Source: an uncultured Calditrichaceae bacterium (GTDB lineage Bacteria; Calditrichota; Calditrichia; RBG-13-44-9; J075). Taken from it: DNA of 64,000 nucleotides. Location: NCBI GenBank assembly GCA_964522165.1, contig CAZFVV010000001.1, positions 23,394-87,393 on the forward strand, given 5' to 3'. Every line of letters starts with the position of its first letter. Position 1 is the stretch's first letter. Both the position numbers and the translations under genes were made by a program. Positions 14,053-41,264 of the stretch are shown piece after piece. Under the pieces are notes generated by a model, which was not told the DNA's origin, did not search any database, and was given only the letters and a program-made list of their open reading frames with translations.

Positions 14053-14092
14053 AACACTTTTTATCAACCTTTTATCGAAGGAGATTTTTTTA

Positions 14093-18606: not shown

Positions 18607-18621
18607 ACTCCTTTCAGAAGT

Positions 18622-18712
18622 GAGACGTGATGCGTGAAGCGTAATGCATAAAAAACGGAATACGCAATACGGAATACTTATTACGAGTTACGCATCACGT
18701 TTCACGCTTCGG
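18622..18712. repeat. Hairpin repeat of the CGTGAAGCG/CGTAATGC family
   Basis: GTGATGCGTGAAGCGTAATGCAT...ACGAGTTACGCATCACGTTTCACGCTTC forms an inverted repeat. A related copy is at 49143-49240. Confidence 0.55.
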
Positions 18713-21435: not shown

Positions 21436-21660
21436 GGGTGCCACGGACGCAGCACAAATTGCACTGGAGGCAGAGCCTCCAAGAGTGCGTTACACAGCAG
21501 AGCTGTGTAACGAGTAATTTGATATATCTCGTTCCAGTGCTCTGCACGGAACGGATTCTTTCGAGGTTCCGCCTCGAATTTGTGCAATTTGTGCTGCGCC
21601 CAGTGCCACGAAGTGGCTCCTTTGAAGCAAAACTTCAGTTTTGCCCCTGCCCCCGCTCCC
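21436..21660. repeat. Structured intergenic element flanked by CACAAATTGCACTG ... GTGCAATTTGTG inverted repeats; contains the perfect palindrome GTTACACAGCAGAGCTGTGTAAC and ends in the GCAAAACTTCAGTTTTGC palindrome
   Basis: Inverted repeats are readable. A second copy with the same ends is at 24690-24830. Confidence 0.5.
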
Positions 21661-25363: not shown

Positions 25364-25695
25364 TCATAAATTTCCATGCACGCTGTTTCTGGATCTGAAA
25401 TAAACTCTTCTATTTCAAGCGAGTGTTTTCGAAGCAATTCTGCAATGACCTCAGTGGGTTGGTTCCCGCATCGCAACCAGATGATCTTTGGGGGCGCGCC
25501 TCTCAGCAGGCTGAGTTCATAGAAATCGGCATCCAGGGTAACGATCACAAAATCGGTTTGGCGGGCGTATTCCCAAATTTGTAAATCTTCCGCGCGCGCC
25601 ATGTTTAACAATCGCACTTGCTGCGATCTGGGAAACATATCTTTCAATGCTGTACAGAGCCGGAAGCTTAGATTTTGGTCAAATAACAACTTCAT
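25360..25695 (-). CDS. DUF5615-family PIN-like protein (usual partner of DUF433)
   Basis: 111 aa. The MKLLFDQNLS start and acidic residues at D6, D48 and D66 match DUF5615. It overlaps the DUF433 gene by 4 nt. Confidence 0.72.
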   Translation of the reverse strand: MKLLFDQNLSFRLCTALKDMFPRSQQVRLLNMARAEDLQIWEYARQTDFVIVTLDADFYELSLLRGAPPKIIWLRCGNQPTEVIAELLRKHSLEIEEFISDPETACMEIYE

Positions 25696-25919
25696 CCAGC
25701 CACAACCCGGGCTTTGTTATGCCGATCCGCGGCAAACGCTAAACAGGCCAGGATGTCGTCTATAGTTAATTCCGGGAAATCCGCTAAAATTTCCTCATAG
25801 GTCATACCGGCGGAAAGCCAGCCTAACACGTCCCCCACGGTGATGCGCATCCCCCGGATACAGGGCTTGCCCCCCCGCTTGCCCGGCTCGATGGTAATAA
25901 TATCTTGATAGCGATTCAT
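25692..25919 (-). CDS. DUF433 domain protein (antitoxin-like)
   Basis: 75 aa. EPGKRGGKPCIRGMRITVGDVLGWLSAGMTYEEILADFPELTIDDILACLAFA is the canonical DUF433. Confidence 0.8.
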   Translation of the reverse strand: MNRYQDIITIEPGKRGGKPCIRGMRITVGDVLGWLSAGMTYEEILADFPELTIDDILACLAFAADRHNKARVVAG

Positions 25920-25948
25920 TTATATTGTCCTCATGCTTTTCAAATTTC

Positions 25949-26149
25949 CTAAACAACTTCAAATTGCAGCTTCTTCAAATTGTTTAATGGGACACGCGCA
26001 GTCACTTTTAAAATTTCGATGCCAACCACATGTTCCTTACCATCAAAATCGAAAATGATACCGTGTTTGATCTCCTCTGACTCGATTATTTTCGATTCAT
26101 CAAAGCAGATGTAGATTGCGTCGGCTTTTTCATCAAACATGACTTTCAT
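25949..26149 (-). CDS. DUF2283 domain protein
   Basis: MKVMFDEKADAIYICF...GKEHVVGIEIL matches DUF2283. Start chosen at the MKV with a GAAGGA RBS. Confidence 0.7.
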   Translation of the reverse strand: MKVMFDEKADAIYICFDESKIIESEEIKHGIIFDFDGKEHVVGIEILKVTARVPLNNLKKLQFEVV

Positions 26150-26386
26150 AGTATATCCTTCATTCATGAAGGGGCTTTCTGTCTTTGGCGGTGTAAATAT
26201 CTTTCTTTTAAAAAATTGACCGGCTAAAAGTTAGCCCGTAACCGGGGAGAATTGCAAGAAGTTTATTACCGCAGATTGGCGATGGGTTTCTGCGGCGTTT
26301 GCATACTAATCAAACAAACTCAACTGGCCGTGATCGTCCAGGGGAAGGTAGCGATAGCGCCTTTTGTTCCAGGCTCCCTCCCCGCC

Positions 26387-27250
26387 TCACAACTCATACC
26401 GCCGGGCAAATCCATTGGAAATTTTGTAAATGCACAAGAGGGTGAATACGATCAAAAACGCCGCGGTAACCCCCTGCAAGTGGGTAAAAAACAGGCGGCT
26501 GACGTAGCCGGGGTGGGTGAGGGTATGCCCGATGGCTAAGATATCCTGCTTGCTGTCGATTTTAGCCAGCAGGCTTCCCAGGGTTACCGGCAGGTTTACC
26601 GCGCTGACCTCGGTGGACAACCCCACGGAGACGATGAAATCGATACTGCACAATAGAAAAATGGTAATCCCGAAAACCGCAATCAGTTTGTTGACGATAT
26701 GCGCCAGACTGTTTTTCCAGAGAATTTCCCGGTTGATGATACGGCTTTCCCGGATGCCGCACACCAGCATGGCGTTGTAGAAATCCAGTTTTTTATAATA
26801 GTCGATCCGTTCCCGCACCAGGTCGGCGATTTCCAGGAAGATGAATACGCTGATGGTGAAGGCGATGAGCAGGATGATCGCCGCGGTGCTGCGCAACACC
26901 CCGCCCTGGATACCCAGGGTGATCAGCACGTACCCCAACAGGATGCCCACGATCTGGGGAACGGAGCGAATCAGGTTGAGCAAAAACGCAGCGGTGAGAT
27001 AGGGCGCGGGAGTGCGCAGCTTCTCCAGAAAGTACATTCCCAGCGCGGTTGACCAGCCTAACAACAGGGAGAAGACGATCCCGAACAGGGCGATTACCAG
27101 GGTATAGAAAAATCCCGCTTCGATCTTTTCCAACGCCGGGCGGTTGAGATGGAGGATGTTCCATAGCCACGCCAATCCCACCCCGGCCAGCCAGATCAGC
27201 AGCCAAAGCTTGTCTTTATCGCGATAAATGGTGGTTGCCAATGCTTTCAT
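26387..27250 (-). CDS. ABC transporter permease (Opp/Dpp/Yej-type inner membrane component)
   Basis: Six predicted TM helices and a permease-like conserved loop region. Start taken at MKALATT; the upstream extension is a translation of the repeat. Confidence 0.72.
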   Translation of the reverse strand: MKALATTIYRDKDKLWLLIWLAGVGLAWLWNILHLNRPALEKIEAGFFYTLVIALFGIVFSLLLGWSTALGMYFLEKLRTPAPYLTAAFLLNLIRSVPQIVGILLGYVLITLGIQGGVLRSTAAIILLIAFTISVFIFLEIADLVRERIDYYKKLDFYNAMLVCGIRESRIINREILWKNSLAHIVNKLIAVFGITIFLLCSIDFIVSVGLSTEVSAVNLPVTLGSLLAKIDSKQDILAIGHTLTHPGYVSRLFFTHLQGVTAAFLIVFTLLCIYKISNGFARRYEL

Positions 27251-27261
27251 TTTTGCCTCGG

Positions 27262-27354
27262 AAGGCGCATGGCGCAGAGCGCGGAGGGCAGAGCGCAAAA
27301 GGTAATGCGTACGGGGCGTGAAAAGCTTTCTCTATGCGCCATGCGCCATGCGCC
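27262..27354. repeat. GCGCATGGCGCAGAGCGC-family hairpin repeat
   Basis: GGCGCATGGCGCAGAGCGCGGAGGGCAGAGCGC ... TGCGCCATGCGCCATGCGCC; copies also at 29581-29752 and 32370-32485. Confidence 0.6.
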
Positions 27355-28554
27355 TCAACGGTTTTCATACTTCCGCGTTTCCGCCTCCAGCCAATAATCG
27401 GCGGCGATTTCCGTGGCCTTGACCACCCAGAAAATGCCTAACCCGATGGCGAACACCACGTCGAACTGCTTATAAAGGATATTTTGCAGCATTTCGTAGC
27501 ACAAGTGCCCCTGGATATTCAGCGCCATCTCGATGATCACCAGCCCGGTGATCAAAAAGGAGGCTTGCTCCTTGAGCGTGGATAGATATTGATAACGGGC
27601 GTTCAGGTAAATGTGCTGGAACACGTGCCCGGGGAACCGCTTTTCCCAGCGCAATATGGAGAGGGTAGAAATGCCCTCCGTGGCGCCGGGCAAGTAATTG
27701 TTGTTCAATCCCTTGACGATGGCGGTTTCTACGTACCCCTTGCGGCTTTCCGCCACTAAGAAGGTGTAAAATTTCTGGGCGTAGGTGATCAATAATCCGT
27801 TGGAAATAACGCCCAACAGCACCAGGAAGAAAAATGTATCGGTATTGAACCCGGTGCGGAAGGAATACGCGATCACGTACGCGGGGGAGAACAATACCAG
27901 GTAAGCGATGCCTTTCCCCGCGGCTTTGGCCAGCAGGCCGGCGGAACGGGCCAGGTCGCGGAGAATTTGCGGAAGGTCTTTTTGCCGGGGAATTCCGGCC
28001 AGGCAGGCCGCTAATTCCGCCAGGTAAGACGTACGGTTTTGCTTCATGCGCACGAAGCGCAGAACCGCCAGGGTTTGCACGCCGTAGTAGGTCAGCAGCA
28101 TCACCACCAGGTAGGCGAGGATGAATTTGAAATACATTCCGGTAAGCTGCCAGAGCTTGCCGCCGCTCAGCCCCTGGTACAATCCCGCTTTCCGGGCGAT
28201 TTCCTTCGCACGCCCGGCGCGATAGCGGTCGATGGCCCGCAGCAGGGAATCCGCTCGCCCGGGATGATCGGGATAGTACACATTCAGGGTCTCGCGCAGG
28301 AGCGCCCGGTGCAGGGGGTTGGTGATATCGAGGGACTCCAGCCTCAGCAGGGCCTCGATCTCCGCGTTTCCGGCGGGATTCCCAGGTTTATTCTCCGCTT
28401 CAACGCTGAAGATCAGCGCCAGAAAAATAAGCGAGACGAAAGCGATGCTGAGGAGGTGCTCGGTTAATTTGCGTTTCATGGAAAAGCCATTTGCTTGCGC
28501 GGCAATAGTGGTCATTTGCCCCTGCCGGGGCGTCAATTGCGCTGCGCGCGTCAT
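27355..28554 (-). CDS. ABC transporter permease (DppB/YejB-like)
   Basis: Polytopic membrane ORF with a C-terminal permease core. The start is ambiguous between 28554, 28515 and 28479. Confidence 0.7.
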   Translation of the reverse strand: MTRAAQLTPRQGQMTTIAAQANGFSMKRKLTEHLLSIAFVSLIFLALIFSVEAENKPGNPAGNAEIEALLRLESLDITNPLHRALLRETLNVYYPDHPGRADSLLRAIDRYRAGRAKEIARKAGLYQGLSGGKLWQLTGMYFKFILAYLVVMLLTYYGVQTLAVLRFVRMKQNRTSYLAELAACLAGIPRQKDLPQILRDLARSAGLLAKAAGKGIAYLVLFSPAYVIAYSFRTGFNTDTFFFLVLLGVISNGLLITYAQKFYTFLVAESRKGYVETAIVKGLNNNYLPGATEGISTLSILRWEKRFPGHVFQHIYLNARYQYLSTLKEQASFLITGLVIIEMALNIQGHLCYEMLQNILYKQFDVVFAIGLGIFWVVKATEIAADYWLEAETRKYENR

Positions 28555-28559
28555 TTATA

Positions 28560-28735
28560 GTCATTTTTACCCGGCATTACCGGGAAAAACTGTCTCACTT
28601 TTCACTGTTCACCCTTCGACCTGCTCGATTCGTCGTTCAGGCGGGCAAGCTCGGGGCATGTTTTTCACTTCCCATTTTTCACTTTTCATCCCCGCATTCG
28701 CGGGGACAAGCTTTGCACTTTCCACTTCCCTCACT
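28560..28735. repeat. TTTTCACTT-unit repeat region with two C-rich hairpins (CCCGGCATTACCGGG and CCCCGCATTCGCGGGG)
   Basis: Read directly; this is the only copy in the window. Confidence 0.45.
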
Positions 28736-29750
28736 CCTTCCCGCGCACTTCGATGGCGCCCTGGCGCCGGGAGACCCGGTAGGGCGCGCCGAGCAATGCG
28801 TTCTCCAAATGATCCACGAGTTGCCCGGCGCTTTCCGGGAAGACCTGGGGAGAGGGCGCGCCTTCCAAAACACAGTGAACCCGGTTCGCCTCTACCTCTA
28901 CGATCCAGCGGGGCGGGGTGCGGCGCTGGCCGGTTTGCGCGTTGAGATACGCAAAAAGCTCCGCCAGCACCCGGTTTGTTTCCGCAATCCGGCTTTCGAC
29001 CCTTTGCACGATTTCGGGGGGAATGCTCTCCGCGACCGCCGCAGTTCTGCGGTAGATGCGCCAGGAGCGCTCCCGGGATTCATTCGCCAGGTTCGACCAG
29101 CCATAGCGCGGTTCTCCGCCCGGATTTTTGACATACACCCGGCCGCGGTAAGCAAATAAGCGCAGCAGCCGCTCCCCCTTTTCCAGGTAGAATCGCTGCG
29201 CGCGCGGGGTGGATTCGGGCGCAGGATTTTGCGTGATAAACAACGCCTGGTTCGCCAACACCTCTACCGTATCCCGCAGCAGGGTGCAATTATCGAAAAC
29301 CCGGTGGAAACCGATGCGATCCGCGTGCATAAGCTGCCGGCGCTCGTCGGCGAGGAGGAAATAGAGCGAATGGTCGGCCTGCACCTTTATACAGGGAGTG
29401 AATCCGTCGCTCAAATACCCATCGGCGTCTATGATTTGCAAGGGCTGATAGGGTGCCAGGGGGGTTTCCTGCCGGGCATCGATGCGCTGCTGGAATTTGT
29501 CATAAATGACCAGCTCGCGGGGATTTTCAACGGTCAGGAAGTCTGCGGTCTGGGCGGGGAGAAGGCCGCTAAGCGCAAAGAGCAGGGCGCAGAGCGCAGA
29601 GCGCAGAGTGCATGGCGCATAGCGCATGGAGCAAGGAGCAGAACGCAGAGTGCATGGTGCAAAGGGGGAATCGGAGAGCCGGCAGCACGTACGCCCCACG
29701 CTCTGCGCCATGCGCCATACGCTCTGCGTCATGCGCTTTGCTCCCCTCAC
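28731..29750 (-). CDS. Hypothetical secreted protein. The first roughly 40 codons, including a plausible signal peptide (LCALLFALSGLLPAQTADF), are encoded by the GCGCATGG repeat.
   Basis: Long ORF. A believable start is the ATG near 29624 (MRYAPCTLRSALCALLFAL...). Confidence 0.5.
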   Translation of the reverse strand: MRGAKRMTQSVWRMAQSVGRTCCRLSDSPFAPCTLRSAPCSMRYAPCTLRSALCALLFALSGLLPAQTADFLTVENPRELVIYDKFQQRIDARQETPLAPYQPLQIIDADGYLSDGFTPCIKVQADHSLYFLLADERRQLMHADRIGFHRVFDNCTLLRDTVEVLANQALFITQNPAPESTPRAQRFYLEKGERLLRLFAYRGRVYVKNPGGEPRYGWSNLANESRERSWRIYRRTAAVAESIPPEIVQRVESRIAETNRVLAELFAYLNAQTGQRRTPPRWIVEVEANRVHCVLEGAPSPQVFPESAGQLVDHLENALLGAPYRVSRRQGAIEVRGKE

Positions 29751-29752
29751 TT
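29581..29752. repeat. GCGCATGGCGCAGAGCGC-family repeat, largest copy
   Basis: GCGCAGAGCGCAGAGCGCAGAGTGCATGGCGCATAGCGCATGG ... CGCTCTGCGCCATGCGCCATACGCTCTGCGTCATGCGC. Confidence 0.6.
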
Positions 29753-30403
29753 CAACATCCTCTTTAGAAAGTTCAGGTTTTCCTCGGGGCTGAAAATCGC
29801 CGGGATGGGAATCTCGAACCCGTCGATTACCAGGCTTTTCACCGTTCCCGATCCGGATTTGCTGAGCAGTTGGTACTCCTCGCCTTTCAGAACGTATTGC
29901 TCTAAGATTTGCTGATCCGGGTCGATGATCCAGTACTCGCCGACGCCGTGGGCGGCGTAATCCTCGAATTTGATCTCGCGGTCGAAATGCTCAGTGCCGG
30001 GGGACAATACTTCCGCGATAAAATCCGGCGCCGGGAACTTAACCTGGTTTGGCTGGAAGAATTTAGATTTCTCGCGCTTAAAAAAGCAGATATCCGGTTC
30101 GTAATCATTGCGAGTAAATGAAACCATGATTTTTTCGATTCCTACGTAACCGAGATCGTTGATTCGAGCGTAGTTGTCAAGGAGAATTGCCAGTAGTTTT
30201 ACTGCGTTATTGTGGCTCAACCTTACCGGGGTATGATAGACAATTTCCCCGTTGATAAATTCAGCCTTATCATCTTCCTTGATTTGCCGGTAAAACTGTT
30301 TCCGCTTTTCCTGCTCCGCGGAAAGAATCTCCTGGATTTCCTCCAGGTAGAGTTTCAGCTTTGGAGAGTTGCGCAGTTTTTCTAACAAAGCGGTTTCCAT
30401 CAT
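29747..30403 (-). CDS. Uma2-family (DUF820) endonuclease-fold protein, second copy
   Basis: 218 aa. AEFINGEIVYHTP...PDICFF...PDFIAEVLSPGTEHFDREIKFEDYAAHGVGEYWIIDP is the Uma2 core. Confidence 0.8.
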   Translation of the reverse strand: MMETALLEKLRNSPKLKLYLEEIQEILSAEQEKRKQFYRQIKEDDKAEFINGEIVYHTPVRLSHNNAVKLLAILLDNYARINDLGYVGIEKIMVSFTRNDYEPDICFFKREKSKFFQPNQVKFPAPDFIAEVLSPGTEHFDREIKFEDYAAHGVGEYWIIDPDQQILEQYVLKGEEYQLLSKSGSGTVKSLVIDGFEIPIPAIFSPEENLNFLKRMLK

Positions 30404-30481
30404 TCAACTCCCTGGCTTATGTATGCTGATGTAACAGAAATCCTTCGCCGAAGACGAAATCTGCCTCCCGGCCCCTGCCCC

Positions 30482-30505
30482 GGCAAAACTGAAGTTTTGC
30501 ACTCC
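30482..30505. repeat. Palindrome GGCAAAACTGAAGTTTTGCACTCC
   Basis: Same family as 853-872 and 54184-54204. Confidence 0.6.
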
Positions 30506-30599
30506 TAATCCACCCGCTCACGCCATTTGAGTCTGGAAGACGAAATCCCGACATGCGGCCAGGGAAGGCCGCGTCTTTGTCGGGATTCTCACCCAGCCC

Positions 30600-32339
30600 C
30601 TAATCCACCCGCTCTCTCCATTTCTCAATCGTAGAAAGCTGCGAGGCCACCCCGTAGAGATCGATGCTGCCGGCCTCGAACTGGGTGCGAAAATAGGCCA
30701 GTGAGGGCAGGGAGAATAACCACGCGCCCAGGGCCAGCTCCTGTTCGACCTGGTCCACGTACTGGGCGTACACCTGTTTGTCGCCGATATGGTTGGTGTG
30801 CATAAATCCGTACGTGTATTCCAAGAATTTCAGGGTCGCTTCCTGTTCGGGGCCGCCGCGGGCGGCGTCGAGGCGGCAGAAATTGTTGTTCGCCTGTAAC
30901 GATTGGGGAGCGGCGACGGAAGCGCCTTTAGCGTCCATCTGGGTCGCCAGGCTGATTTTGTAGGTTTCCAAATCCGGTTCCCGCAAAAAGATATTGTAGA
31001 GATCGAACAAAAAGGTGCTGCGATAGCCGTCGATGGCGATCAGCAGGGCGTCGTAATCGCCCTGTTTGACGGCGTCGTTGGTCACCGCCAGGGCGCGAAC
31101 CCGTCCACGGGTCAGGGCCGGGTCGTTCAGGATATCGAGCAAATCCGCGTATTCCTCGCGGTGGCCGTAATTCAGGCATCCCACGATACGCAAAGTGTCC
31201 GGCAGCAGGGAGAAGTCCGGCGAGGAGGTATCCTGTGGCGGCGGCAATACGATTTCTTCTTCCACGTAATAGGTGGTGGAGGGGAAAACGCTGCGGTTCA
31301 GATAGTCGGAATAATTATCGGAGTTGCCTTTATAGTCGGTGATATGGCGCTGCTGGGGCGTGTTCACCTTGTAGAAGCGCTCCACAATAGCGCGGTTGTT
31401 GAAGAGCTTTCGCGCTTCTTTCCGTTGCGCCTGGTTCAGGCGCTGGGTGTTGAACAGCAGGGCGAAAAAAGTGGTGCTGATATTGGATTTATAGAAATAC
31501 TTCTCGGGATTTTCCAGAATCGGGGAAAGGCTACCGAAGGGAGTGCTCAACAGCACGTTGAAGTTATTGTTTTTGAATTCCGTGGTATAGGTGCTGTTGT
31601 CGATATAGGGTTTCAGGTTTACCCGGGTGATGGTGGCGCTGCCGGCGGGGCTGCGGTAGTAATTGGAGGTTTCGGCCAGTGGCGTGAGGGCCAGGTACGG
31701 GCCGCTGCCGTTATAGAAATTCAGGGCGTTCAGATCGGAGTTGGCCGGGATGATTTTAAAAGAGAGCACTTCCATGATGTCCGCGTCGGTCCAAATCCGG
31801 TCGCTCTTGAATTGGAAGCGAATCTCCCCATTGGCGTCCGGCCCCTCGAAATCCCAGGATTGTAGCGCCTGGGAAACCAGGATGTAATCCGGCGACAGGC
31901 TTCCTAAGTCACGGATACGCCGCAGGGTAAAGCGCAAATCTTCCGCGGAAAAATAACGATCCTGCGCATCGGTGATCGTCACCTCATCATCTTTCACCTG
32001 CACGTTAAAACTGCTGTGCCATTTTTTCTTGATATTCAGACGTACGGTAACGACGTTGTTCGCGTCAATGCCGATGAATTCTCCTAAGCCGTCCTCGTAA
32101 ATGATGCCGCTGGGGTTGGCGGAAATATTGAACAGCCCGTCGAAGAGCACCTCATCTAACTTGTCGGAGAGGTCCACCGCATGGGGCAGGTGCGGATCGA
32201 TGACCGGTTTCTGGTGCGAAATGTAAGGAATGGCGATCTGGTCCGATAAATCCTTGCGCAATACCAGCCAGAGAACCAACACTAACAATGCCACCCCCAG
32301 TACGGTCCCCCCGATGATGAAAATGTTCTTTTTCTGCAT
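30600..32339 (-). CDS. ABC transporter substrate-binding protein, family 5 (peptide/oligopeptide-binding), membrane-anchored
   Basis: 579 aa, N-terminal TM anchor, size and layout of SBP_bac_5. Permeases lie downstream on the same strand. Confidence 0.72.
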   Translation of the reverse strand: MQKKNIFIIGGTVLGVALLVLVLWLVLRKDLSDQIAIPYISHQKPVIDPHLPHAVDLSDKLDEVLFDGLFNISANPSGIIYEDGLGEFIGIDANNVVTVRLNIKKKWHSSFNVQVKDDEVTITDAQDRYFSAEDLRFTLRRIRDLGSLSPDYILVSQALQSWDFEGPDANGEIRFQFKSDRIWTDADIMEVLSFKIIPANSDLNALNFYNGSGPYLALTPLAETSNYYRSPAGSATITRVNLKPYIDNSTYTTEFKNNNFNVLLSTPFGSLSPILENPEKYFYKSNISTTFFALLFNTQRLNQAQRKEARKLFNNRAIVERFYKVNTPQQRHITDYKGNSDNYSDYLNRSVFPSTTYYVEEEIVLPPPQDTSSPDFSLLPDTLRIVGCLNYGHREEYADLLDILNDPALTRGRVRALAVTNDAVKQGDYDALLIAIDGYRSTFLFDLYNIFLREPDLETYKISLATQMDAKGASVAAPQSLQANNNFCRLDAARGGPEQEATLKFLEYTYGFMHTNHIGDKQVYAQYVDQVEQELALGAWLFSLPSLAYFRTQFEAGSIDLYGVASQLSTIEKWRERVD

Positions 32340-32369
32340 ATTTTTCCTTTCTATCGCTCAGTTTTTTTT

Positions 32370-32485
32370 CGCATGGCGCATGGCGCAGAGTGCATAGCGC
32401 ATAGTGTAGAATTTTCATACGCCACAAGCCCTGCCCCATGCGCTCTGCTGTATGCTCTATGCGCCACGCGCTTTGCGCTATGCTA
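32370..32485. repeat. GCGCATGGCGCAGAG-family hairpin repeat
   Basis: GCATGGCGCATGGCGCAGAGTGCATAGCGCATAG ... CATGCGCTCTGCTGTATGCTCTATGCGCCACGCGC. Confidence 0.6.
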
Positions 32486-34843
32486 ATTTTTCTTGATCAA
32501 CGGGCGCTGGCACATCACGCTCACTTCCAACACCTTGAACGCGGAGTGCTTGAAGCGCACTTCCAGAATGTTGTCGCGGTTTTTGACCATTTGCACCGGG
32601 GTAAGCTGGCACTCATAGTCGTTGTCCGGGGTGGGGGAGGTGATGGTAAAGCGCCCTTCGTTTTTCAGCACGTTGCCGTTCATGGTGATGCGTTCGTACC
32701 ACTGCTCCTGCCCGGCCCGGCTTGCAACCTCCCGGGGCAGTTTGATGTTCACGTCGAAGACCGGGAACTGGGCGTCGGATTCGATCTGGATGTTCAACTT
32801 GAACATGTATTCATTGCCGGCCTGCGAATTGGCGTTCACCGGGAGCACGTAGATTTTGCGGTACTCCGTAGGTTTGGTGATCCACTTGGCGGCCTGGGGA
32901 TCGCATTCCGCCACCAGGTTGCGGATTTTCCGGTCGCTGCCCTTGTAATATTTGCCGTGGGTGACAATCGCCCGCGCCCTTGCAACCCCGTTATCGCCGG
33001 GATTGCGCTCGAATTCCCGGTAGAGGTTTTCAATCGACATTTTCGGGAATTGATCGTACTTGAAGGAGTCTAAGTAATTCTGAATCCGTTTTTTGTTCGC
33101 TTCCAGAACGGAAGCGCCGCCGGAAGAAAAGGTCAATTCATGTACCGGGCTGAACGCCGGGTTTGCATAGAGGGAGTCCACCTTCTGGTACACCGCCTTG
33201 TTGGCCTCGATGAAAACGTTGATGCGCTTGCGGGATTCCTCTTCCACGGTGCTGACCAGGCGCTCCTCGGCGTTTTTCACGGTCTGGTTTTTTCGCGGCA
33301 GCGCGGCGTCATAATCCAGGAAGTTGCGGTCTTCGTATAACGCCCGGATTTTACTCTCCGCGACGCTCCACAACTGGTTCTCCAGGGCGATGTTGATGTC
33401 GCTTTCCTGCTGCTGGAGCGAAAGCTGGTCGATGTTGCCGTACTGCCGGGTTAGAAAATCCAGGCCGGGGTTCAGTTTCAGCAACCGGATAATTTCGCTG
33501 TAATTCGATTGGGCTTTCAGACGGTTGATTTGCGGAACCAGGGCTGCGGCGGTCTGGAAACCGAGCTGCAAAGTGCGAATTTCTTCGCCGGTGGCGCGGG
33601 CGGCCTGGTCTAACCGGGTAACGCAGCGGTAAGCGGCAAATTTCCCGTAGGTGGTTGCGGAAACCCGCGGCAGCGACGCCGCCAGTTTGTCGATTTGCGA
33701 CTGCAAGCGGGGATAAAAGTTGTCCGAAGGCCATTCCCCGGTTCCTTCGAGGCTTGCCTTGATATCCTCCAGGCCGCCGCGGGCGTTTGCCACCGCCTCC
33801 GCGTCGCGGTTAAAAGTTCGGATCGCGCCGGACACGGCTTTAAAACGGGCGTCGGGCTGCTGGTTGCACTCCCGGAAAAGCGCCTCGGCTTTATCTAACG
33901 GGTAATCGACCGGGGAAATGTCGGTTTTCTGTTGCAGCACTTTTTCCAGGTACGGGGCAAGCTCCGGCAGCCGGTTGCCGATATTCTGCCGCGCTTCCTG
34001 CACCACGTTTTCCGCAAACTCATCTTTGCGCTCAAAAAAAGCCATAAAATCCGGCACCGCCAGGGCAAAGGCGTCGGCATCGGAGCGGCTTGCGCTCTCT
34101 TTGTTGAGGGCGTTCAGCATCACCTGGTAATTTTCCTGGAAACGCAGCTCGCTTTCCAGCTCGTTTTTCAGCCCCACGTAATCCAGGTACGCCTTGTCAT
34201 CGGAATTTTTGATTTCCGGGGGAAAGATGGCTTCGATTTTCTGCAATTCGCTTTGCAGCGATTTCAGGGTTTGATTTTTCCGGCGGGTATCGGCCAACTC
34301 CTCATCGAAGCGTAAATCCTGCGCCCGGAGGGTGCTGCCCAGGGCCTCGTAATTTCCCCGGTCCACTTTGTTCCTCGCCAGGGTAAGCTGAAATTCGGCG
34401 CTGCGAGTTTCGAACTGGTAGCGCCAGATCGGCACGTAACGGTAATCCAGGGTGAGTTCCAGGTTTTGCCGAACATCTTCCACCACCCAGTAGTAAGCAG
34501 TGGCCGCCCGCCCGATTTTATACACATTGACATTGTCATCTGCGGCGCTCTCATCGTTTACCGGGATGTCGCCTTTGCCCTTGGTGAATTGTTCCGTCAG
34601 GTGGGAAGTGAGCGAGGGGAGATCATTTCCCCGCAAGACCAGGTACATGTTGTCCGCCTGGGTGCCGGGGAAAATCATGTAATATTTTTTTCCTTTTTTG
34701 AGCTTGAAGCGTTTATCCTTATTGAGTAATTGAATGTATTCGCCTTCCCGGGAAAAAATTTCCGGTTTTGGCGTCAGTTGCTTGTAGGGGCTGCATGAAC
34801 TCAAAAAAATCAGAATAGCCAATAATGCAACGCTCAGTTTCAT
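32483..34843 (-). CDS. Large lipoprotein (787 aa, lipobox LSSC), hypothetical, coiled-coil rich
   Basis: Start taken at MKLSVALLAILIFLSSC. No known domain recognised. Confidence 0.68.
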   Translation of the reverse strand: MKLSVALLAILIFLSSCSPYKQLTPKPEIFSREGEYIQLLNKDKRFKLKKGKKYYMIFPGTQADNMYLVLRGNDLPSLTSHLTEQFTKGKGDIPVNDESAADDNVNVYKIGRAATAYYWVVEDVRQNLELTLDYRYVPIWRYQFETRSAEFQLTLARNKVDRGNYEALGSTLRAQDLRFDEELADTRRKNQTLKSLQSELQKIEAIFPPEIKNSDDKAYLDYVGLKNELESELRFQENYQVMLNALNKESASRSDADAFALAVPDFMAFFERKDEFAENVVQEARQNIGNRLPELAPYLEKVLQQKTDISPVDYPLDKAEALFRECNQQPDARFKAVSGAIRTFNRDAEAVANARGGLEDIKASLEGTGEWPSDNFYPRLQSQIDKLAASLPRVSATTYGKFAAYRCVTRLDQAARATGEEIRTLQLGFQTAAALVPQINRLKAQSNYSEIIRLLKLNPGLDFLTRQYGNIDQLSLQQQESDINIALENQLWSVAESKIRALYEDRNFLDYDAALPRKNQTVKNAEERLVSTVEEESRKRINVFIEANKAVYQKVDSLYANPAFSPVHELTFSSGGASVLEANKKRIQNYLDSFKYDQFPKMSIENLYREFERNPGDNGVARARAIVTHGKYYKGSDRKIRNLVAECDPQAAKWITKPTEYRKIYVLPVNANSQAGNEYMFKLNIQIESDAQFPVFDVNIKLPREVASRAGQEQWYERITMNGNVLKNEGRFTITSPTPDNDYECQLTPVQMVKNRDNILEVRFKHSAFKVLEVSVMCQRPLIKKN

Positions 34844-35084
34844 AATCAACCCTTTCTGTATGTGGTTTACGGGCGCTTCCGGCGCATTTCCGGATGCTTT
34901 GCAATCGTGCTTGTTCCTGGCGCATGTCAAATTGCACGCGGTCTAATAAGAAGCTGTTTACGAGCAAAAAGTTTACCAACTGGCTGAGCTTCTGCAATTT
35001 GGACGACTCCACCCCCGAACCCTACGAAATTCAAATATACTTAATAAATCAAGGGCGGAATAGCAACTTGATAATAAAAATCGA

Positions 35085-35165
35085 GGGTGGGGAGCGTGGG
35101 GCGGGAGGGGTAGGCAGTGGCAATAGGCAGTAGGCAATTACTCCTGCTAACTGCTCCTGCGCCTT
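35085..35165. repeat. Hairpin repeat GGTAGGCAGTGGCAATAGGCAGTAGGCAAT ... CTCCTGCTAACTGCTCCTGC
   Basis: 8-nt periodic units; read directly. Confidence 0.45.
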
Positions 35166-35512
35166 AAAAACGAGGAAAAACATTTTGTCGTTTGCAACAC
35201 AATTGTCAAGTAATAATTCACGTACTTGAATAAAAATTGAACGCGGATTAGGCTTTAGTCAGTTAACCGGGAGAAACCGGGTGAGAACGGGAATGCCGGT
35301 CAGCAAATACAAAATTTCATTGAAAGCTTCTCAAAACCATATCCATCGGAACGTTTTGGAAAGCGCACGGAAGGCGGGAGTTCGGTTCCGTCCCCTGCGG
35401 AGTGGGTTGCTGCGAGATTTTTCGCGTGGCGGAAATCACGTATTGAATTTATAAAAATCAATTTTCATTAACCGAAGCTCCCCGCCTGGCCGGCACGGGA
35501 AATATGCAAAAA

Positions 35513-35595
35513 AGTGTTATGGTGTTTTGGTGTTATAGTGTTTGGGTAATTGAACATCTGTACACCGGAACACCATCGCACTAAAATATTACATC
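35513..35595. repeat. GTGTTNNN/NNNAACAC periodic palindrome
   Basis: GTGTTATGGTGTTTTGGTGTTATAGTGTTTGG ... ACACCGGAACACCATCGCAC. Confidence 0.55.
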
Positions 35596-35669
35596 ACTAT
35601 AACCCGAATTTTCTTCAAAACGTCACATAAGCCATAACGGTATTCTACACAAACAGCGAGGTTCGGATC

Positions 35670-36143
35670 ATGGAGCAGTATCACTCGACGATTGGCAGTG
35701 TTGCCCGGGAAATGTTACAAAATTTCACCCGGAAAGAAACCGGTAACGGGGCGCCGTTCTGGGATTTGCGGGAAAATGTAGCCTGGCAGCATCAATTAGT
35801 GATGGATGCCTGCGGAGAAAGGGTAGCGGGGCCGGCAGTGTATTCCGCGGTGTTCAAAATCTTGCTGGAAATTTACCTTGCGGAAAACAAGGAACAGGCG
35901 GAAGATTTCCTGTATGAGATCGACCCCTGCACCGAGGTTTCCGAATTGACCGCCTGGCTGCACATTTCGGACCGGAATATGGATTATCTCAACCGGGTGC
36001 TCTACCATGGGAAACCGGCAGACGCTCGCAATATGTTGGCGGAAGCGCACAAATTGTATCTCCAGGATATTGGCGCTCGCTTAATCGAAGCGATTGACGG
36101 CTACATCCTTCAATATATCTATAATGGAAGGGCGGCGAATTAG
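35670..36143 (+). CDS. Hypothetical protein (157 aa)
   Basis: ORF with an RBS-like GCGAGG upstream. No recognisable motif. Confidence 0.5.
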   Translation: MEQYHSTIGSVAREMLQNFTRKETGNGAPFWDLRENVAWQHQLVMDACGERVAGPAVYSAVFKILLEIYLAENKEQAEDFLYEIDPCTEVSELTAWLHISDRNMDYLNRVLYHGKPADARNMLAEAHKLYLQDIGARLIEAIDGYILQYIYNGRAAN

Positions 36144-36527
36144 CCGCAGTGGAATGGGTGTTCGAGCGGTGCGGCGAACAATGATGTTCGTCGCACCTCC
36201 ATAAGTTTGACGCTGAATGGCATCTCAATCTTAATCGATTTTAAATTTGCAAATCGTGATCTGGCTGCCATGATAAACTATATCCATTTGTTCTCTTAAA
36301 ATCGCCAGGGGACTTTGATGTCCGAAAAAAATGGCATATTGAGCGCCTTCCCGGTGTTGTTCTAAAAGCAGTTCGGCATCCACATTTTTAGGAAATCGCC
36401 ACCCGAAACGACCCACCCGGTATAATTGGATGGCCGGCAAGGGTCTTCCACCGTCACCCTTGCACTTTGAGGAACATATTGATCAATCAGCTTTCGCGTA
36501 GCGATGAAATCTTTTTCCGAATAATCA

Positions 36528-37070
36528 TCATACCAGGGTCAAAGAGAATATTAAATATTTATTAGATTTTTGCATTTCGGCTTTGATGAAAAAGTATAAA
36601 GCCCAAACCGTGGCGGTTAGAATGATAATATCGGGTTGGATTTTCCGGGTATAGAAAAAGAATAGCGGTGAGCAGGCAGTTAAATAAACGGCTAAAAGTG
36701 CGCCTTTGCCATGGAGGTAGAGTTTAGACAGCTTATAGATACCCCATAGTCCTGATATTCCGATGAACACCGAAAGAAGCCGGGGCACTAAATGGCGAAA
36801 TCCGAATACATGATACAGTAAGCCGGTAATATAGTTGTAAACCGGAAACTCCATCCCGGTAATGCCAATCTTGTCTTTTCGTTGATGGGTTCTCGGCTCA
36901 AAGATGTTCTTGCTTTCTCTATAGAAAGCTTCCGCAACTGCCGCAGTATCGGATTCACGCCAGGTGTGATAACCGTTCGGAGGATCGGTAATTCCATATA
37001 GATGGCTTAGAAGGTGAAAAAATAGCATTCCTGCCAAGATTGGCCTTTCTTTTTGTACGGCACTCGGCAT
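36528..37070 (-). pseudogene. Truncated GT39/ArnT-PMT-like glycosyltransferase: N-terminal 180 aa only
   Basis: The N-terminal TM helices and periplasmic loop (PNGYHTWRESDTAAVAEAF) resemble the GT-C ArnT/PMT family. The ORF ends after about 4 TM helices; full-length members are about 500 aa. The surrounding DNA is AT-rich. Confidence 0.45.
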
Positions 37071-37120
37071 ATGATCAAGACCTCAAACCTGCAGCAAGGG
37101 AAGTAATTAAATCAGTAACC

Positions 37121-38086
37121 TTAAAACACTTCGATCTTCACATAGCGCCCGGGGTTCTTCTTCAAATCTGTGCTCAGGGAGTCCAGGGAGCGGCTCAGGT
37201 TCACCAGGTTTTGATACAACTGCTTGTCGTTCAACAACTGCGCCGCGGTTCCGCCGCCGTACTGCAGCCGGTAGAGCAGGGAATCGGTTTTAGTTGAGAT
37301 CGCCTTGACCCGGGGGAAAAACGCGGTGTCCGCCAGCAATTGCGCGAAGGTTCCTTTGCCGTTGTGCAAACTGTCTAAAATCGCCTGGAAGTTCGCGGAG
37401 CTGCGGTTCAGGCGGGCGTAGAGGGTGGTGTCCTGCAGGATTTTGCCGGCCGTGCCCTCCCCGCGCGCCAGCCGCCCGGAAATTTTGTCCACATTGGCCA
37501 TCAGGTGCATGAAATTGCCTTCCGCCGCCGGGTCCTTGAACAGCTTCCCGATAATCCCCTTTCCTTGCTTCGCTTCCGCGGTCAGGGAATCCACGTTGTA
37601 AAGGGTTCTCTTCAATCCGGTAAGCATTTCCGAGGCGTCATCGAAAAACGCATAGGGATCTACACCGGGATCGCTGGTAATAAAAGTTTCCGGCTGCAGC
37701 GCCGGCTCCTCGGGGTTGCCGATGTCGATATCCACGTATTTGTCGCCTAAAATGCCCATGGTTTTGATCATGGCCACGGAAGAGGCGGTAATGTGATGGG
37801 AATATTCCTGACCGATTTTCAGCTCCGCGATGATTCCCCGCCGCCCCTCTTCCAGGCTGATGTGCATTTTTCCCACCACCCCGATCTTCAAGCCGGAAAG
37901 GGACACGAACGCGCCGCTATTCAGCCCCTGGGCGTTGGGCAAATACATGTACAGGGAATACTTTTTGTCGAGCAATTTCTGGTTCTTGGCAATGATGAAC
38001 ACGATGAACCCGATCAGGAGAAAACCGAGCAGGAACATCAGGAATACGCCAAGGGAAACGTTGCGGTCTTTACGTGCGAAGGCCAT
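37121..38086 (-). CDS. mlaD: MCE/MlaD-family protein
   Basis: N-terminal TM anchor, then an MCE domain (LSGLKIGVVGKMHISLEEG) and a long C-terminal helical region. Confidence 0.78.
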   Translation of the reverse strand: MAFARKDRNVSLGVFLMFLLGFLLIGFIVFIIAKNQKLLDKKYSLYMYLPNAQGLNSGAFVSLSGLKIGVVGKMHISLEEGRRGIIAELKIGQEYSHHITASSVAMIKTMGILGDKYVDIDIGNPEEPALQPETFITSDPGVDPYAFFDDASEMLTGLKRTLYNVDSLTAEAKQGKGIIGKLFKDPAAEGNFMHLMANVDKISGRLARGEGTAGKILQDTTLYARLNRSSANFQAILDSLHNGKGTFAQLLADTAFFPRVKAISTKTDSLLYRLQYGGGTAAQLLNDKQLYQNLVNLSRSLDSLSTDLKKNPGRYVKIEVF

Positions 38087-38107
38087 GGGGACTGCGCTCC
38101 ACTGGTT

Positions 38108-38830: not shown

Positions 38831-38839
38831 CAGGCTATC

Positions 38840-39643: not shown

Positions 39644-39702
39644 ATCAGCGATAAAGTTAAGAGAAAAGCGGGAATAATCAAAATTGTATTTGGGCGGCGC
39701 GT

Positions 39703-41223: not shown

Positions 41224-41264
41224 CCTCCCGGAGGTTCCGAACCTCCGGGAGGGTTTAAATCAAT

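Follow-up and report, generated by a model that had tools for sequence, protein, structure and literature searches.

Convergent heptamer arrays form hairpins at gene junctions of a Calditrichaceae genome and appear to overprint the start of a secreted-protein gene

In a 64,000-nt stretch of DNA from an uncultured Calditrichaceae bacterium (GCA_964522165.1, contig CAZFVV010000001.1, 23,394-87,393; hereafter the window), hairpins at gene junctions are microsatellite palindromes in which one degenerate tandem array of a 7-nt unit precedes another built from the complementary unit. The best overall explanation, to which we give a probability of roughly 0.6, is that these palindromes grew by slippage, would form stem-loops in mRNA, and at one junction overprinted the start of a gene for a secreted protein (the focal gene) lying downstream of a Uma2-family gene.

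Heptamer palindromes in the window

Three unit families were counted across the window with up to two mismatches allowed and compared with the mean in shuffled sequence. The pattern GCGCAKRGCGCAKR (GCGCAKR family) has 46 matches against a shuffle mean of 8.3, CGTRAWGCGTRAWG (CGTRAWG family) has 15 against 3.8, and GGTATARGGTATAR (GGTATAR family) has nine against 0.46. Three GCGCAKR sites (27262-27354, 29572-29752, and 32369-32485) hold 31 of the 46 matches; inspection of the sequence there finds G-rich 7-nt units followed by their complement, and in every hairpin TRF detects arrays of period 7 on the two arms. CGTRAWG matches are located at 18626-18706 and 49147-49238, and GGTATAR matches at 47746-47808 and 60220-60321. 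Thus, the original prediction of three hairpin-forming families at gene junctions is confirmed, with counts far over shuffle expectation and recurrence in sister lineages. At all sites of all three families the left arm consists of plus-strand matches and the right arm of minus-strand matches, and the G-rich arm comes first in each hairpin on either strand. The same polarity prevails among 99 metagenomic GCGCAKR arrays, at least three complementary units lying downstream in 28 and upstream in five.

The arrays are usually paired as imperfect palindromes starting 0-30 nt after the upstream stop codon and, as read from the sequences, every window hairpin between co-directional genes starts within about 30 nt of that stop. 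One GCGCAKR hairpin (32369-32483; left arm ~32369-32410, loop 32411-32429, right arm 32430-32483) sits between the gene for an 815-aa lipoprotein and an SBP-like gene. On the mRNA strand it starts straight after the TAG stop at 32483-32485 and reaches to within 29 nt of ATG 32339, with an A8 run and AAGGA staying outside it. Another (27262-27354; left arm 27265-27299, right arm 27333-27353) sits between two permease-like genes, starting straight after TGA 27355-27357 and stopping 11 nt before ATG 27250, with GAGG left free. Both are delimited by sequence, TRF, and pattern matches, and with the Uma2/focal hairpin, which begins at a TGA, all three GCGCAKR hairpins of the operon start directly at stop codons. 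The hairpin arms are unequal (about 6 versus 13 units) and mismatched. Elsewhere, a CGTRAWG hairpin (18620-18705; pattern matches and 85% complementarity by an inverted-repeat finder) separates era from a HAD hydrolase gene. Pattern matches place a CGTRAWG/GCGGGRA hairpin (49143-49240) between M24 peptidase and POT transporter genes, a GGTATAR hairpin (47744-47815) between the POT transporter gene and an aconitase gene, and a GGTATAR/GGGGAGT hairpin (60213-60331) between genes 59113-60207 and 60372-62621.

The lineage as a whole has an excess of 6-8-nt tandem arrays, and these hairpins are one form that it takes. The window holds 37 arrays of period 6-8 where 20 shuffles gave 1-9, and 31 of the 37 lie in non-CDS DNA, which makes up 14% of the window. 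The count of five repeat families therein stands, but their description as unrelated is not clear-cut, as the orthologous hairpin in L013 has inner arms of another unit type. For ORFs 26387-27298, 47817-49265, and 14018-15253, the proposed N-terminal extensions are an artefact that arises because the repeats are poor in stops; the real starts, each preceded by an SD, lie at 27250, 49097, and 14094.

The start of the secreted-protein gene

The Uma2-family (PD-(D/E)XK-like) gene (29747-30403, minus strand; Pfam E = 2.8e-33) is an insertion separating the SBP-like gene from the focal gene (28731-29732, minus strand), whose secreted product has about 440 homologue clusters and no Pfam match. In L004, a Calditrichaceae orthologue whose locus is almost array-free, Uma2 is absent from this place. 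The GCGCAKR hairpin of the junction (29553-29752, minus strand) is supported by sequence, TRF, the inverted-repeat finder, pattern matches, and predicted fold, and it lies inside the most likely focal CDS. An element had been predicted at 29581-29752; it is real, but that boundary falls short, since a degenerate 7-nt register runs down to about 29553. Read along the mRNA, SD and ATG lie in the 5′ arm (29695-29746), which is followed by the loop core (29657-29694) and then by the 3′ arm (29553-29656), where the signal-peptide n- and h-regions are encoded. According to the inverted-repeat finder, 29578-29626 is 78% complementary to 29704-29752 over 49 nt, and the MFE of the predicted 254-nt fold is -113 kcal/mol.

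The SD motif GGGGAG (29741-29746, minus strand) immediately follows the TGA stop of Uma2 (29747-29749); it is kept in four of five lineages and is paired in the predicted MFE stem. Eight nucleotides further on is the first ATG past that stop (29730-29732, minus strand), giving a product of 333 aa identical to P0005. Each of the five lineages has an ATG at this position, and the distances from it to the mature protein (201, 177, 138, 222, and 195 nt) are all multiples of 3, which keeps the two in frame. Stops are absent from this frame in every lineage, compared with 0-3 stops in the other sense frames. Judged by these features, ATG 29732 is most likely the start of the focal gene. The claim that the only plausible start is repeat-encoded holds insofar as all candidates (ATG 29732, 29711, and 29627, and the GTGs) lie in repeat units; however, the best of them is ATG 29732 and not the GTG at 29750, which overlaps the Uma2 stop codon.

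It is also possible, though we do not favor it, that translation begins at an internal codon, namely ATG 29627 in the window (29625-29627, minus strand; MRYAPCTLRSALC...) and an ATG giving MRSALYALLFAL or MRYALYALLFAL in orthologues. In that case the intercistronic leader, made up of the 5′ arm and loop, would be untranslated, and the last units alone would encode a signal peptide of 22-28 residues. Such an ATG exists in four of five lineages, and JGI and NCBI annotations use internal starts (P0006, the JGI call at ATG 29627, P0007, and P0008). The resulting length fits the family, in which DFLIVE lies at residue 16-64 among the homologues listed, mostly in the 20s-40s, while the n-region from ATG 29732 comes to 46 residues, long for a signal peptide. 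Furthermore, spacer length differences in multiples of 3 also occur at apparently non-coding junctions, and thus in-frame length alone is weak evidence that the hairpin is translated. However, the internal ATGs, including 29627, all lack a preceding SD and their position is not conserved, with CTG in the window at 29604-29606 but ATG in three orthologues. L013 lacks internal ATGs altogether, none lying nearer the hydrophobic core than its first ATG. The stop-free upstream frame in five of five lineages and the canonical GGGGAG-N8-ATG kept at the Uma2 stop also speak against an internal start.

With either start, the hydrophobic core of the signal peptide, ALCALLFALSGLL (29559-29597, minus strand; followed by PAQTA, 29544-29558), is repeat-encoded. 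Its segment ALCALLFAL is encoded by 3′-arm units matching YMTGCGC at 6-7 of 7 positions in array register, so this part of the original prediction is upheld. The most hydrophobic 12-residue stretch has a mean hydropathy of 2.1-2.7 in the four clade proteins scored; the window protein contains the same stretch, although the scoring script found no motif in it. The stretch ends 5 residues before DFL(T/I)VE, within the range of the family, as the signal peptides of the roughly 440 homologue clusters are ordinary N-terminal ones whose ends lie 5-16 residues ahead of the conserved DFLIVE motif. L004 has a non-repeat signal peptide that aligns with that of the window (LRHTVMGWMVVLCLSLPAVHA versus LRSALCALLFALSGLLPAQTA). 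Because ordinary signal peptides occur at the equivalent position in these clusters, near-array-free L004 included, the 5′ end appears to have been overprinted, not created. The proposal that the repeat created the gene 5′ end is therefore not borne out, and an independent signal peptide of the L004 kind is what the original prediction itself had named as evidence against it. The evidence fits a pre-existing start and signal peptide that the array overprinted in a clade also bearing the upstream Uma2 insertion.

Array turnover and possible roles

The same junctions are occupied in L003, L005, L009, L011, and L013, but the number of units and their sequences vary. The Uma2/focal arrays are very different among five lineages, and the loop is inverted in two of them, L005 matching the reverse complement of the loop core at 38 of 43 nt. 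Indels of whole units are seen, including one of 21 nt (three units) with the flanks CGCAGAGCGT and one of 42 nt (six units) between L003 and L009. The spacer at the permease-like junction is 104 nt in the window, L003, and L009, though the arms differ by one unit each way. The 98-nt hairpin between the 815-aa lipoprotein and SBP-like genes is the reverse complement of its L003 copy (91% identity; score 151 versus 44 in direct orientation). These between-lineage changes suggest that arrays grow and shrink by slippage of whole units or unit blocks, and that recombination or template switching between arms may flip whole hairpins or loops. Arrays would thereby fill sequence that selection leaves free, typically the stretch that opens at the upstream stop codon and closes shortly before the next RBS. 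At the Uma2/focal junction, the array would have spread over the 5′ end of a gene with an existing ordinary signal peptide, such that the hairpin now takes in the SD and ATG 29732 together with the codons of the hydrophobic core and of what would be a basic N-terminal extension encoded by the repeat. Only in-frame changes (21-nt blocks, inversions, and small in-frame indels) would survive there.

Between the window and L003, hairpin columns, and loops most of all, have fewer substitutions than third codon positions (77-86% identity). By our own reading of the alignments the loops are about 95-98% identical, with for example one mismatch in 46 nt, which points to some constraint on the loops. 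In the polycistronic mRNA, the hairpins are predicted to fold into long imperfect stem-loops, the most plausible effects of which would be protection or processing of mRNA segments between cistrons and control of access to the downstream start. Since the SD and ATG are buried in a predicted stem that starts at the Uma2 stop, translation of the focal gene is probably coupled to the end of Uma2 translation.

A more doubtful reading is that the hairpins are neutral or selfish by-products of a lineage-specific bias in slippage and template switching, tolerated where harmless and contributing nothing to RNA stability or translation. In L004 the same operon does without such hairpins, which indicates that they are dispensable, and the space from stop codon to SD gets filled. 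A check of the two GCGCAKR arms found no mirroring of unit order, and no sense/antisense G-U bias was found in the hairpins. Given free orientation flips, uncompensated unit order, and the lack of a strand-specific G-U signal, neutral or selfish DNA fits these features equally well. However, the junctions are still occupied in all sampled lineages despite unit turnover, loops are better conserved than third codon positions, length polymorphism within species has not been seen, and the polarity is strict (28 downstream versus 5 upstream).

Related repeat systems and less probable identities

This kind of repeat has already been described in Xanthomonas and cyanobacteria (PMC4692102; PMC2670836), and by comparison the Xanthomonas convergent GGGAATC heptamer arrays and the cyanobacterial STRR hairpins appear to be the closest known kinds. 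Rehm et al. (2015) described convergent heptameric SSR arrays, with GGGAATC in Xanthomonas and GGGGAYT in Nostoc (PMC4692102). Each Xanthomonas genome has 70-75 cases of two convergent arrays able to form stem-loops; these are overwhelmingly intergenic, lie nearer the upstream ORF (about 28 nt on average), and occupy the same junction across related species with extensive length and sequence variation (PMC4692102). The present hairpins likewise consist of degenerate, convergent 7-nt tandem units, intergenic in position, and keep their junction while the array varies. In contrast, they occur in another phylum, several unit families share one genome, and GCGCAKR, CGTRAWG, and GGTATAR lack the GGG tracts underlying the G-quadruplex interpretation; in addition, one array lies inside a CDS and in-situ inversions are documented.

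STRR are 7-bp tandem repeats forming intergenic hairpins, such as at hupS-hupL and upstream of hoxW, for which stabilization of transcripts or coupling of translation has been proposed, as a proposal only (PMC2670836). They share with the present arrays heptamer tandem repeats able to form hairpins between operon cistrons. Their units (CCCCAGT, TTGGTCA, and CAACAGT) differ from the present ones, and the present host is not a cyanobacterium. The coding overprint of the focal gene has no counterpart described for STRR in the literature compared (PMC2670836). TAACTGA heptamer repeats of Beggiatoaceae, cyanobacteria, and Bacteroidetes are direct, with a single inverted case reported in the genome studied (PMC4679880). 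They too form intergenic arrays, many just 5′ of start codons, whereas theirs are direct repeats of one specific unit. Similar direct heptamer arrays also occur in the window at 17812-17871 and 28589-28688.

That the hairpins are miniature mobile elements (MITE or REP/REPIN-like) copied to several junctions is improbable. There are several copies per unit family, three within 5 kb, L003 has an extra GCGCATA hairpin outside the operon (14990-15064), and the window contains a separate REP-like palindrome family (GCAAAAYTNNARTTTTGC). REP/BIME elements of enterobacteria and the REP-like palindrome of Caldithrix abyssi (PMC5317091) are also intergenic, mostly 3′ of genes and within operons, and REPs stabilize upstream mRNA segments, according to work cited in PMC5317091. 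However, REPs have a fixed 20-40 nt consensus in many near-identical copies, whereas the present copies have only the 7-nt unit in common, their unit order, loops, and arm lengths all being different. Neither terminal repeats nor target duplications were seen, nor was a fixed consensus; orthologous copies change in place by unit-scale indels, and the 40 ORFs scanned include no Y1/RAYT transposase.

A contingency switch, in which gain or loss of a 7-nt unit shifts the frame and turns the secreted protein on or off, is very unlikely. The CTCTT coding repeat in the signal-peptide region of Neisseria opa is such an on/off switch, perfect and highly variable, and there too a translated short tandem repeat supplies the hydrophobic core. 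In both, unit length is not a multiple of 3 and frame therefore depends on unit number, and the window holds three perfect GCGCTCT units. However, the present units are degenerate, runs of perfect copies being no longer than three, the array makes up one half of a hairpin, and length is fixed within species and in frame in five of five lineages. P0002 and P0009-P0014 are all 325 aa over at least 36 contigs with point substitutions as the only differences, 15 contigs from several runs share an identical P0001, and the window version is identical in three assemblies. With no within-species variation in repeat number seen, the array is not a phase-variation switch.

Intrinsic terminators or attenuators are unlikelier still: the hairpins are GC-rich stem-loops directly 3′ of stop codons, but prediction over 25500-36000 gave 18 sites versus 15.6 in shuffles, none coinciding with a hairpin, the 32369-32483 hairpin is followed on the mRNA strand by A8 instead of a U run, and the others directly precede an SD and start codon or sit inside a CDS. 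An Rfam RNA identity was also considered and rejected. Assembly artefacts (collapsed or chimeric reads) can be dismissed, as, although breaks in short-read contigs are common near repeats of this kind (in L001 the end falls at window position 28691, beside a heptamer array), three independent assemblies are identical in sequence, two Logan assemblies from different runs match 28691-41250 and 28747-40808 at 100% identity with hairpins included, and homologous diverged hairpins occupy the same junctions in at least five lineages from different studies, NCBI MAGs among them.

The rich repertoire of repeat families is a reflection of a genome-wide property of this lineage. At one junction, to judge from the sequences compared, the RBS, start codon, and signal-peptide codons of a gene for a secreted protein appear to have been overgrown by a hairpin that leaves the reading frame unbroken.

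Heptamer hairpins in the window and their surroundings

The coordinates in the original prediction for three families of hairpin are accurate, as inspection of the sequence reveals G-rich 7-nt units followed further on by complementary units. On the plus strand, each site opens with G-rich 7-nt units in tandem, passes through a short centre free of repeats, and closes with complementary units in tandem. GCGCAKR units are found at 27262-27354, ~29553-29752, and 32369-32483, CGTRAWG units at 18620-18705 and 49143-49240, and GGTATAR units at 47744-47815 and 60213-60331. In TRF, each of the three GCGCAKR hairpins, which lie in one operon, has a period-7 array on either arm, and period 7 was also reported at 18626, 49171, 47771, and 60276. 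An inverted-repeat finder paired 29578-29626 with 29704-29752 (78% complementarity) and 18620-18645 with 18680-18705 (85% complementarity). When two-unit patterns were counted against dinucleotide-preserving shuffles of the window, GCGCAKR gave 46 matches (shuffle mean 8.3), CGTRAWG 15 (3.8), and GGTATAR 9 (0.46). These matches cluster at the predicted sites, and at every site the plus-strand matches form the left arm and the minus-strand matches the right arm. The possibility that the repeats are assembly artefacts, raised with the original prediction, was also examined. Window positions 28691-41250 and 28747-40808 are 100% identical in two Logan assemblies from different sequencing runs, and the 333-aa product of the focal gene, a minus-strand secreted-protein gene at 28731-29732, is also recorded on an NCBI contig of 164 kb. 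Since independent assemblies are identical, the repeats are not artefacts, and the hairpin finding is real.

The window contains 37 distinct arrays of period 6-8, compared with 1-9 in 20 shuffles. Non-CDS sequence makes up 14% of the window, yet it holds 31 of these 37 arrays. Folding of every intergenic spacer identified many as tandem-unit hairpins, 13 in the window when the GTGTTNNN and GCAGGR families are included with the three considered here. Such arrays are a genome-wide habit of the lineage; the closest genomes to the window are Calditrichaceae MAGs. Hairpins flank housekeeping genes, including those for RNase E/G, era, aconitase, a POT transporter, and an M24 peptidase. At co-directional junctions, the distance from the upstream stop codon to the hairpin is 0-30 nt, and the hairpin ends just short of the next Shine-Dalgarno (SD) sequence. 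The GCGCAKR operon runs on the minus strand from an 815-aa lipoprotein gene through SBP_bac_5-like, Uma2, and focal genes to two permease-like genes, and its three hairpins lie directly 3′ of TAG, TGA, and TGA stops. Metagenomic hairpins, whose ORF context is noisy due to spurious ORFs on GC-rich contigs, lend weak support, with 12 of 21 facing stop codons lying within -8 to +25 nt of the hairpin edge. The hairpins are degenerate heptamer microsatellites in palindromic arrangement, intergenic and adjacent to stop codons. They also occur outside the junctions of protein-coding genes, as a metagenome contig (L113, GC 0.44) carries a GCGCAGA/CCCTGAG heptamer hairpin between two apparent tRNA genes, a tRNA-like 3′ end (...GGTTCGAGTCCTGTTCTGGGCACCA) and then a Leu-like tRNA. 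A 133-aa ORF at 54155-54556, between the genes for a sigma-54 activator and a Ser/Thr kinase, consists almost wholly of GCAGGG repeats and is very unlikely to be a gene.

Several other elements were observed in the window. A separate REP-like palindrome family, (GGAGT)GCAAAAYTNNARTTTTGC(AC), has 6 matches versus 0.18 expected (854-871, 8822-8839, 8863-8880, 21627-21644, 30483-30500, and 54186-54203; also 778-800 and 57328-57385) and often abuts the heptamer hairpins. Its design, with 8-nt arms and a central GA/TC, resembles that of a REP-like motif in Caldithrix abyssi (PMC5317091). A related unit is present three times, as a 55-nt tandem array, at 5934-6077 of L004, a more distant orthologous locus. 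Direct, non-inverted heptamer arrays at 17812-17871 and 28589-28688 resemble the TAACTGA-type arrays found upstream of start codons; TAACTGA repeats are direct, not inverted like the hairpins described here (PMC4679880). On the mRNA strand, (CCCAAAA)4(CTCAAAA)4 is located just upstream of the SD of a DUF2461 gene, the spacer between the focal and first permease genes is filled with GTGAAAA-type units, and AGTTTTG is also an arm of the REP-like palindrome. Two GTGTTNNN hairpins (13856-14001 and 62655-62815) contain related inserts in their loops, GTGAATTAAGGGTTG... and GGGGACAGGGGGGA(G/T)GTCATAA, resembling a small element set inside heptamer hairpins, and the second loop also has a near-perfect 34-nt palindrome (62707-62793). 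A palindromic AATTGGC array at 15292-15316 adjoins a second Uma2-family gene (15333-15806; Pfam E = 2.3e-19). In addition, a 144-nt tandem repeat at 42634-44128 (10.4 copies, 81% matches) lies within a 1087-aa gene (41265-44528) matching DUF5122 beta-propeller, dockerin, and T9SS sorting domains. Positions 2000-6000 form a low-GC island (36-41% versus about 55%), with two genes bearing Por_Secre_tail (T9SS) C-terminal domains, that may have been acquired horizontally.

Turnover of the operon hairpins between lineages

The same operon was recovered from four more distinct lineages, represented by the loci L003 (an NCBI MAG, with L009 nearly the same), L005-L008, L011-L012, and L013, giving five with the window. 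Genes of the window and L003 are 86-93% identical, with 77-86% identity at third codon positions. A hairpin is present at every comparable junction in every lineage; the arrays themselves differ. The 5′ arm of the hairpin between Uma2 and the focal gene carries a 21-nt (3-unit) indel bordered by CGCAGAGCGT, and L003 and L009 are separated by a 42-nt (6-unit) indel. Between the two permease-like genes, one arm gains a unit and the other loses one, leaving the total constant at 104 nt, while the inner arms in L013 are built from another unit type, GGAGCGN/GAAGCGT. Inversions are also evident. The whole 98-nt window hairpin between the 815-aa lipoprotein and SBP genes is the reverse complement of the L003 copy (91% identity; score 151 versus 44 direct), and the 43-nt loop core at the Uma2–focal junction is reverse-complemented in L005 (38/43 nt) and direct in L003 and L011. 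In alignments read by eye, the loops of the window and L003 are ~95-98% identical, above third codon positions. Within species, the focal proteins P0002 and P0009-P0014 are all 325 aa and differ by point substitutions only across at least 36 contigs, and P0001 is identical across 15 contigs. In L004 (34% protein identity), short-period tandem arrays are nearly lacking, hairpins of this kind are missing, and Uma2 is absent from this position. The hairpins are heritable in position and turn over through unit-block slippage and inversion.

Lengths of the operon spacers vary from lineage to lineage as 143/128/101, 176/119/77, 104/104/104, and 107/101 nt (window 27251-27354, 28555-28730, 30404-30599, and 32340-32482, with counterparts in L003, L005, and L009). 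Seven of the eight length contrasts are multiples of 3, even in seemingly non-coding spacers (chance probability ~0.003), and a 21-nt higher-order periodicity of the arrays may contribute to this. A 92-nt insertion, judged against L005 and L003, lies in the SBP–Uma2 spacer of the window (30500-30599). It repeats the final bases of the SBP gene (GAGCGGGTGGATTAG) and includes a strong GC hairpin, CCCGACAAAGACGCGGCC...GGCCGCATGTCGGG.

Start codon and signal peptide of the focal gene

Immediately after the Uma2 stop codon (29747-29749), the mRNA strand reads GGGGAG (29741-29746), then 8 nt, then ATG (29730-29732). Folding places this stop-adjacent SD and ATG 29732 within the 5′ arm of the hairpin, which has an MFE of -113 kcal/mol over 254 nt. 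Three annotation pipelines selected three different starts for the focal gene, all within the repeat. ATG 29732 is favored by several features of the five lineages. The first ATG lies 201, 177, 138, 222, and 195 nt from the conserved VEN codons, in each case a multiple of 3, and the frame of the first ATG contains zero stops in 5/5 lineages, versus 0-3 in the other two sense frames. An SD is present in 4/5 lineages, and L013 has no ATG closer to the hydrophobic core. Internal ATGs occur at differing places in the other four lineages, with the window having CTG at a site where three orthologues have ATG. An internal start is the alternative chosen by the JGI and NCBI pipelines, and the 46-residue n-region that follows from ATG 29732 is long for a signal peptide. 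The value of in-frame length as proof of translation is also weakened, since non-coding spacers of the operon likewise differ by multiples of 3. On balance, ATG 29732 is probably, though far from certainly, the start codon. Translation from ATG 29732 would place the whole hairpin within the CDS. Since SD and ATG both take part in a predicted stem rooted at the Uma2 stop, the focal gene would probably depend for its translation on coupling to Uma2 termination.

Regardless of which start is correct, the repeat encodes both the start codon and the hydrophobic core, as originally predicted. The 3′ arm of the hairpin codes for ...TLRSALCALLFALSGLLPAQTADF, and the units beneath ALCALLFAL fit YMTGCGC at 6-7 of 7 positions in the array register, with the fit fading towards PAQTA. 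The encoded segment has the characteristics of a Sec-type signal peptide, namely a basic n-region, a hydrophobic core (10-15 residues by the Sec criterion), small residues near the cleavage site (placed by eye between AQT and A), and a position immediately ahead of the mature domain. Hydropathy over the most hydrophobic 12 residues averages 2.1-2.7 in the scored clade proteins, in which the repeat-encoded stretch ends 5 residues before DFL(T/I)VE; the spacing in the window sequence is equal. (TCTGCGC)n reads as (SALCALR)n, from which the observed changes of CGC to CTC and TCT to TTT eliminate Arg, and the hydrophobic core is tolerant of overprinting by the array.

The suggestion that the repeat may have created the 5′ end of the gene is contradicted by its homologues. 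A full HMMER search with the mature part returned 440 homologue clusters of about 290-300 aa, and the 30 homologues inspected have ordinary N-terminal signal peptides (for example, MKNIWIVFFAFFVFNIAAAQ and MAQIRVLMILIFLLCAVLSVHAQ), in which the hydrophobic stretch ends 5-16 residues ahead of the conserved DFLIVE motif. The L004 signal peptide aligns with that of the window through the LPAxxA region. These ordinary signal peptides indicate that the ancestral gene had its own start and signal peptide, which, judging from sequence comparison, the array now covers in the window's clade. The array thus appears to have taken over the SD, start codon, and signal peptide of the gene, with the frame kept through 21-nt steps and inversions, and it is this apparent overprint with preserved frame that is the new part of the finding.

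A more novel reading is proposed tentatively, at a probability of about 0.3. In this proposal, the hairpin at the Uma2–focal junction would be a translated, invertible microsatellite palindrome that supplies the SD, the start, a basic N-terminal peptide, and the signal-peptide core, with initiation dependent on Uma2. Initiation would require the stem base to be melted by a ribosome that is terminating on the inserted Uma2 gene. Repeated flips of the loop would yield alternative N-termini (MTQSVGRTCC... or MAQRGKRR...) with the frame held by 21-nt steps, and the basic N-terminal peptide would be disposable. An AlphaFold model of the focal protein was unusable (mean pLDDT 41).

Known repeat systems and possible roles of the hairpins

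The hairpin families add a further case to a known kind of repeat. Heptamer microsatellites are over-represented in many bacteria, and Xanthomonas and cyanobacteria are known to carry them as paired hairpins. In Xanthomonas, convergent GGGAATC heptamer arrays form 70-75 inverted pairs per genome, lie about 28 nt from the upstream ORF, and occupy the same junctions in related species with variable length and sequence (PMC4692102). The window arrays are similar to this type in their tandem 7-nt units, which range from near-perfect to degenerate, in their convergent pairing with the G-rich arm first, in their intergenic location nearer the 3′ end of the upstream ORF, and in their junctions, which are shared by relatives while length and sequence vary (PMC4692102). 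However, the GCGCAKR, CGTRAWG, and GGTATAR units lack the regular GGG of the G-quadruplex-capable Xanthomonas G-tracts, which only the GCAGGG family has. The hairpins also resemble the STRR of filamentous cyanobacteria, heptanucleotide tandem repeats able to form intergenic hairpins (PMC2670836), but none of the TRF consensus units is an STRR unit (CCCCACT at 60276 comes closest) and the relatives are Calditrichaceae MAGs rather than cyanobacteria. In comparison with both systems, the present hairpins belong to another phylum, comprise several unit families per genome, and display documented inversions and a coding overprint. A literature search on such repeats in Calditrichota found only the unrelated REP-like palindrome of C. 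abyssi, and Rfam 15 gave no match at the gathering threshold over the whole window.

As a case of a signal peptide encoded by a repeat, the CTCTT repeat of Neisseria opa, which is defined by its variability, comes closest. As in opa, a simple sequence repeat lies inside the signal-peptide coding region, and its unit length is not divisible by 3. In contrast to opa, the focal array is in frame in all lineages, and variability was not seen.

With regard to function, the hairpins are probably mutational products that occupy space left by selection and, in mRNA, would form long, imperfectly paired stem-loops separating cistrons; initiation at the focal gene would be gated by the stem. The continued occupancy of junctions, the conserved loops, the stable length within species, and a rule of polarity argue against pure drift. 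The G-rich arm comes first in 13/13 window hairpins. Of 99 fully flanked metagenomic GCGCAKR arrays, 28 have three or more complementary units downstream and only 5 have them upstream (locus GC 0.40-0.69 for those with a partner array). This 28:5 polarity could possibly reflect selection against exposure of a C-rich, Rho-loading arm before its partner is transcribed. The sole exception seen to the G-rich-arm-first rule is at 13280-13435 of L003, where TCAGCNN units come first and GCTGANN units second.

Fine-tuned RNA pairing is similarly disfavored, as the GCGCAKR unit order is random-like and no sense-strand G-U signature is present. Permutations of unit order in one arm of the GCGCAKR hairpins folded as well or better in 118/200 and 185/200 cases. 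By permutation test, mirrored unit order is restricted to the 13797 and 60205 hairpins, and the proposal that the arms are mirrored copies is rejected for GCGCAKR, in which unit order is no better than random. Across 13 hairpins, neither MFE nor the number of G-U pairs differed consistently between the sense and antisense strands, with sense favored in 6 of the 12 whose sense strand is known, and strand-specific RNA selection is rejected given the lack of a sense-strand G-U signature. An MFE scan of the whole window was dominated by GC content and was not specific.

The remaining candidates were rejected. A phase-variable switch is not consistent with the absence of length variants in at least 36 assembled contigs of one species and 15 of another. 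REP/REPIN elements or MITEs would have many near-identical copies of a fixed full-length consensus (bounded, in MITEs, by terminal repeats and target duplications), and such a consensus is lacking here, as copies of a family share only the unit while loops and arm lengths differ; orthologous copies also alter in place by unit-scale indels, and no RAYT/Y1 transposase was found among 40 window ORFs scanned against Pfam. A terminator scan of 25500-36000 found no site resembling an intrinsic terminator at any hairpin, and the hairpins are followed by A8, an SD plus ATG, or coding sequence, with no U run. Uma2 as a partner nuclease is rejected, as the two Uma2 proteins of the window, searched by tblastn against 635 kb of GCGCAKR-bearing metagenomic contigs, matched 1 of 120 loci.

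In practical terms, the stop-poor repeats also artificially lengthen several neighboring ORFs. The operon provides a compact natural experiment, with one unit family, three hairpins, at least five sister lineages, and an orthologous locus that is nearly array-free. Its comparison reveals unit-block indels, inversions of whole hairpins, and stability within species, and suggests that an array can take over the translation start and signal peptide of a gene with the frame unbroken. If either the translational coupling or the polarity rule holds true, the hairpins would constitute a testable post-transcriptional layer in an uncultured phylum.
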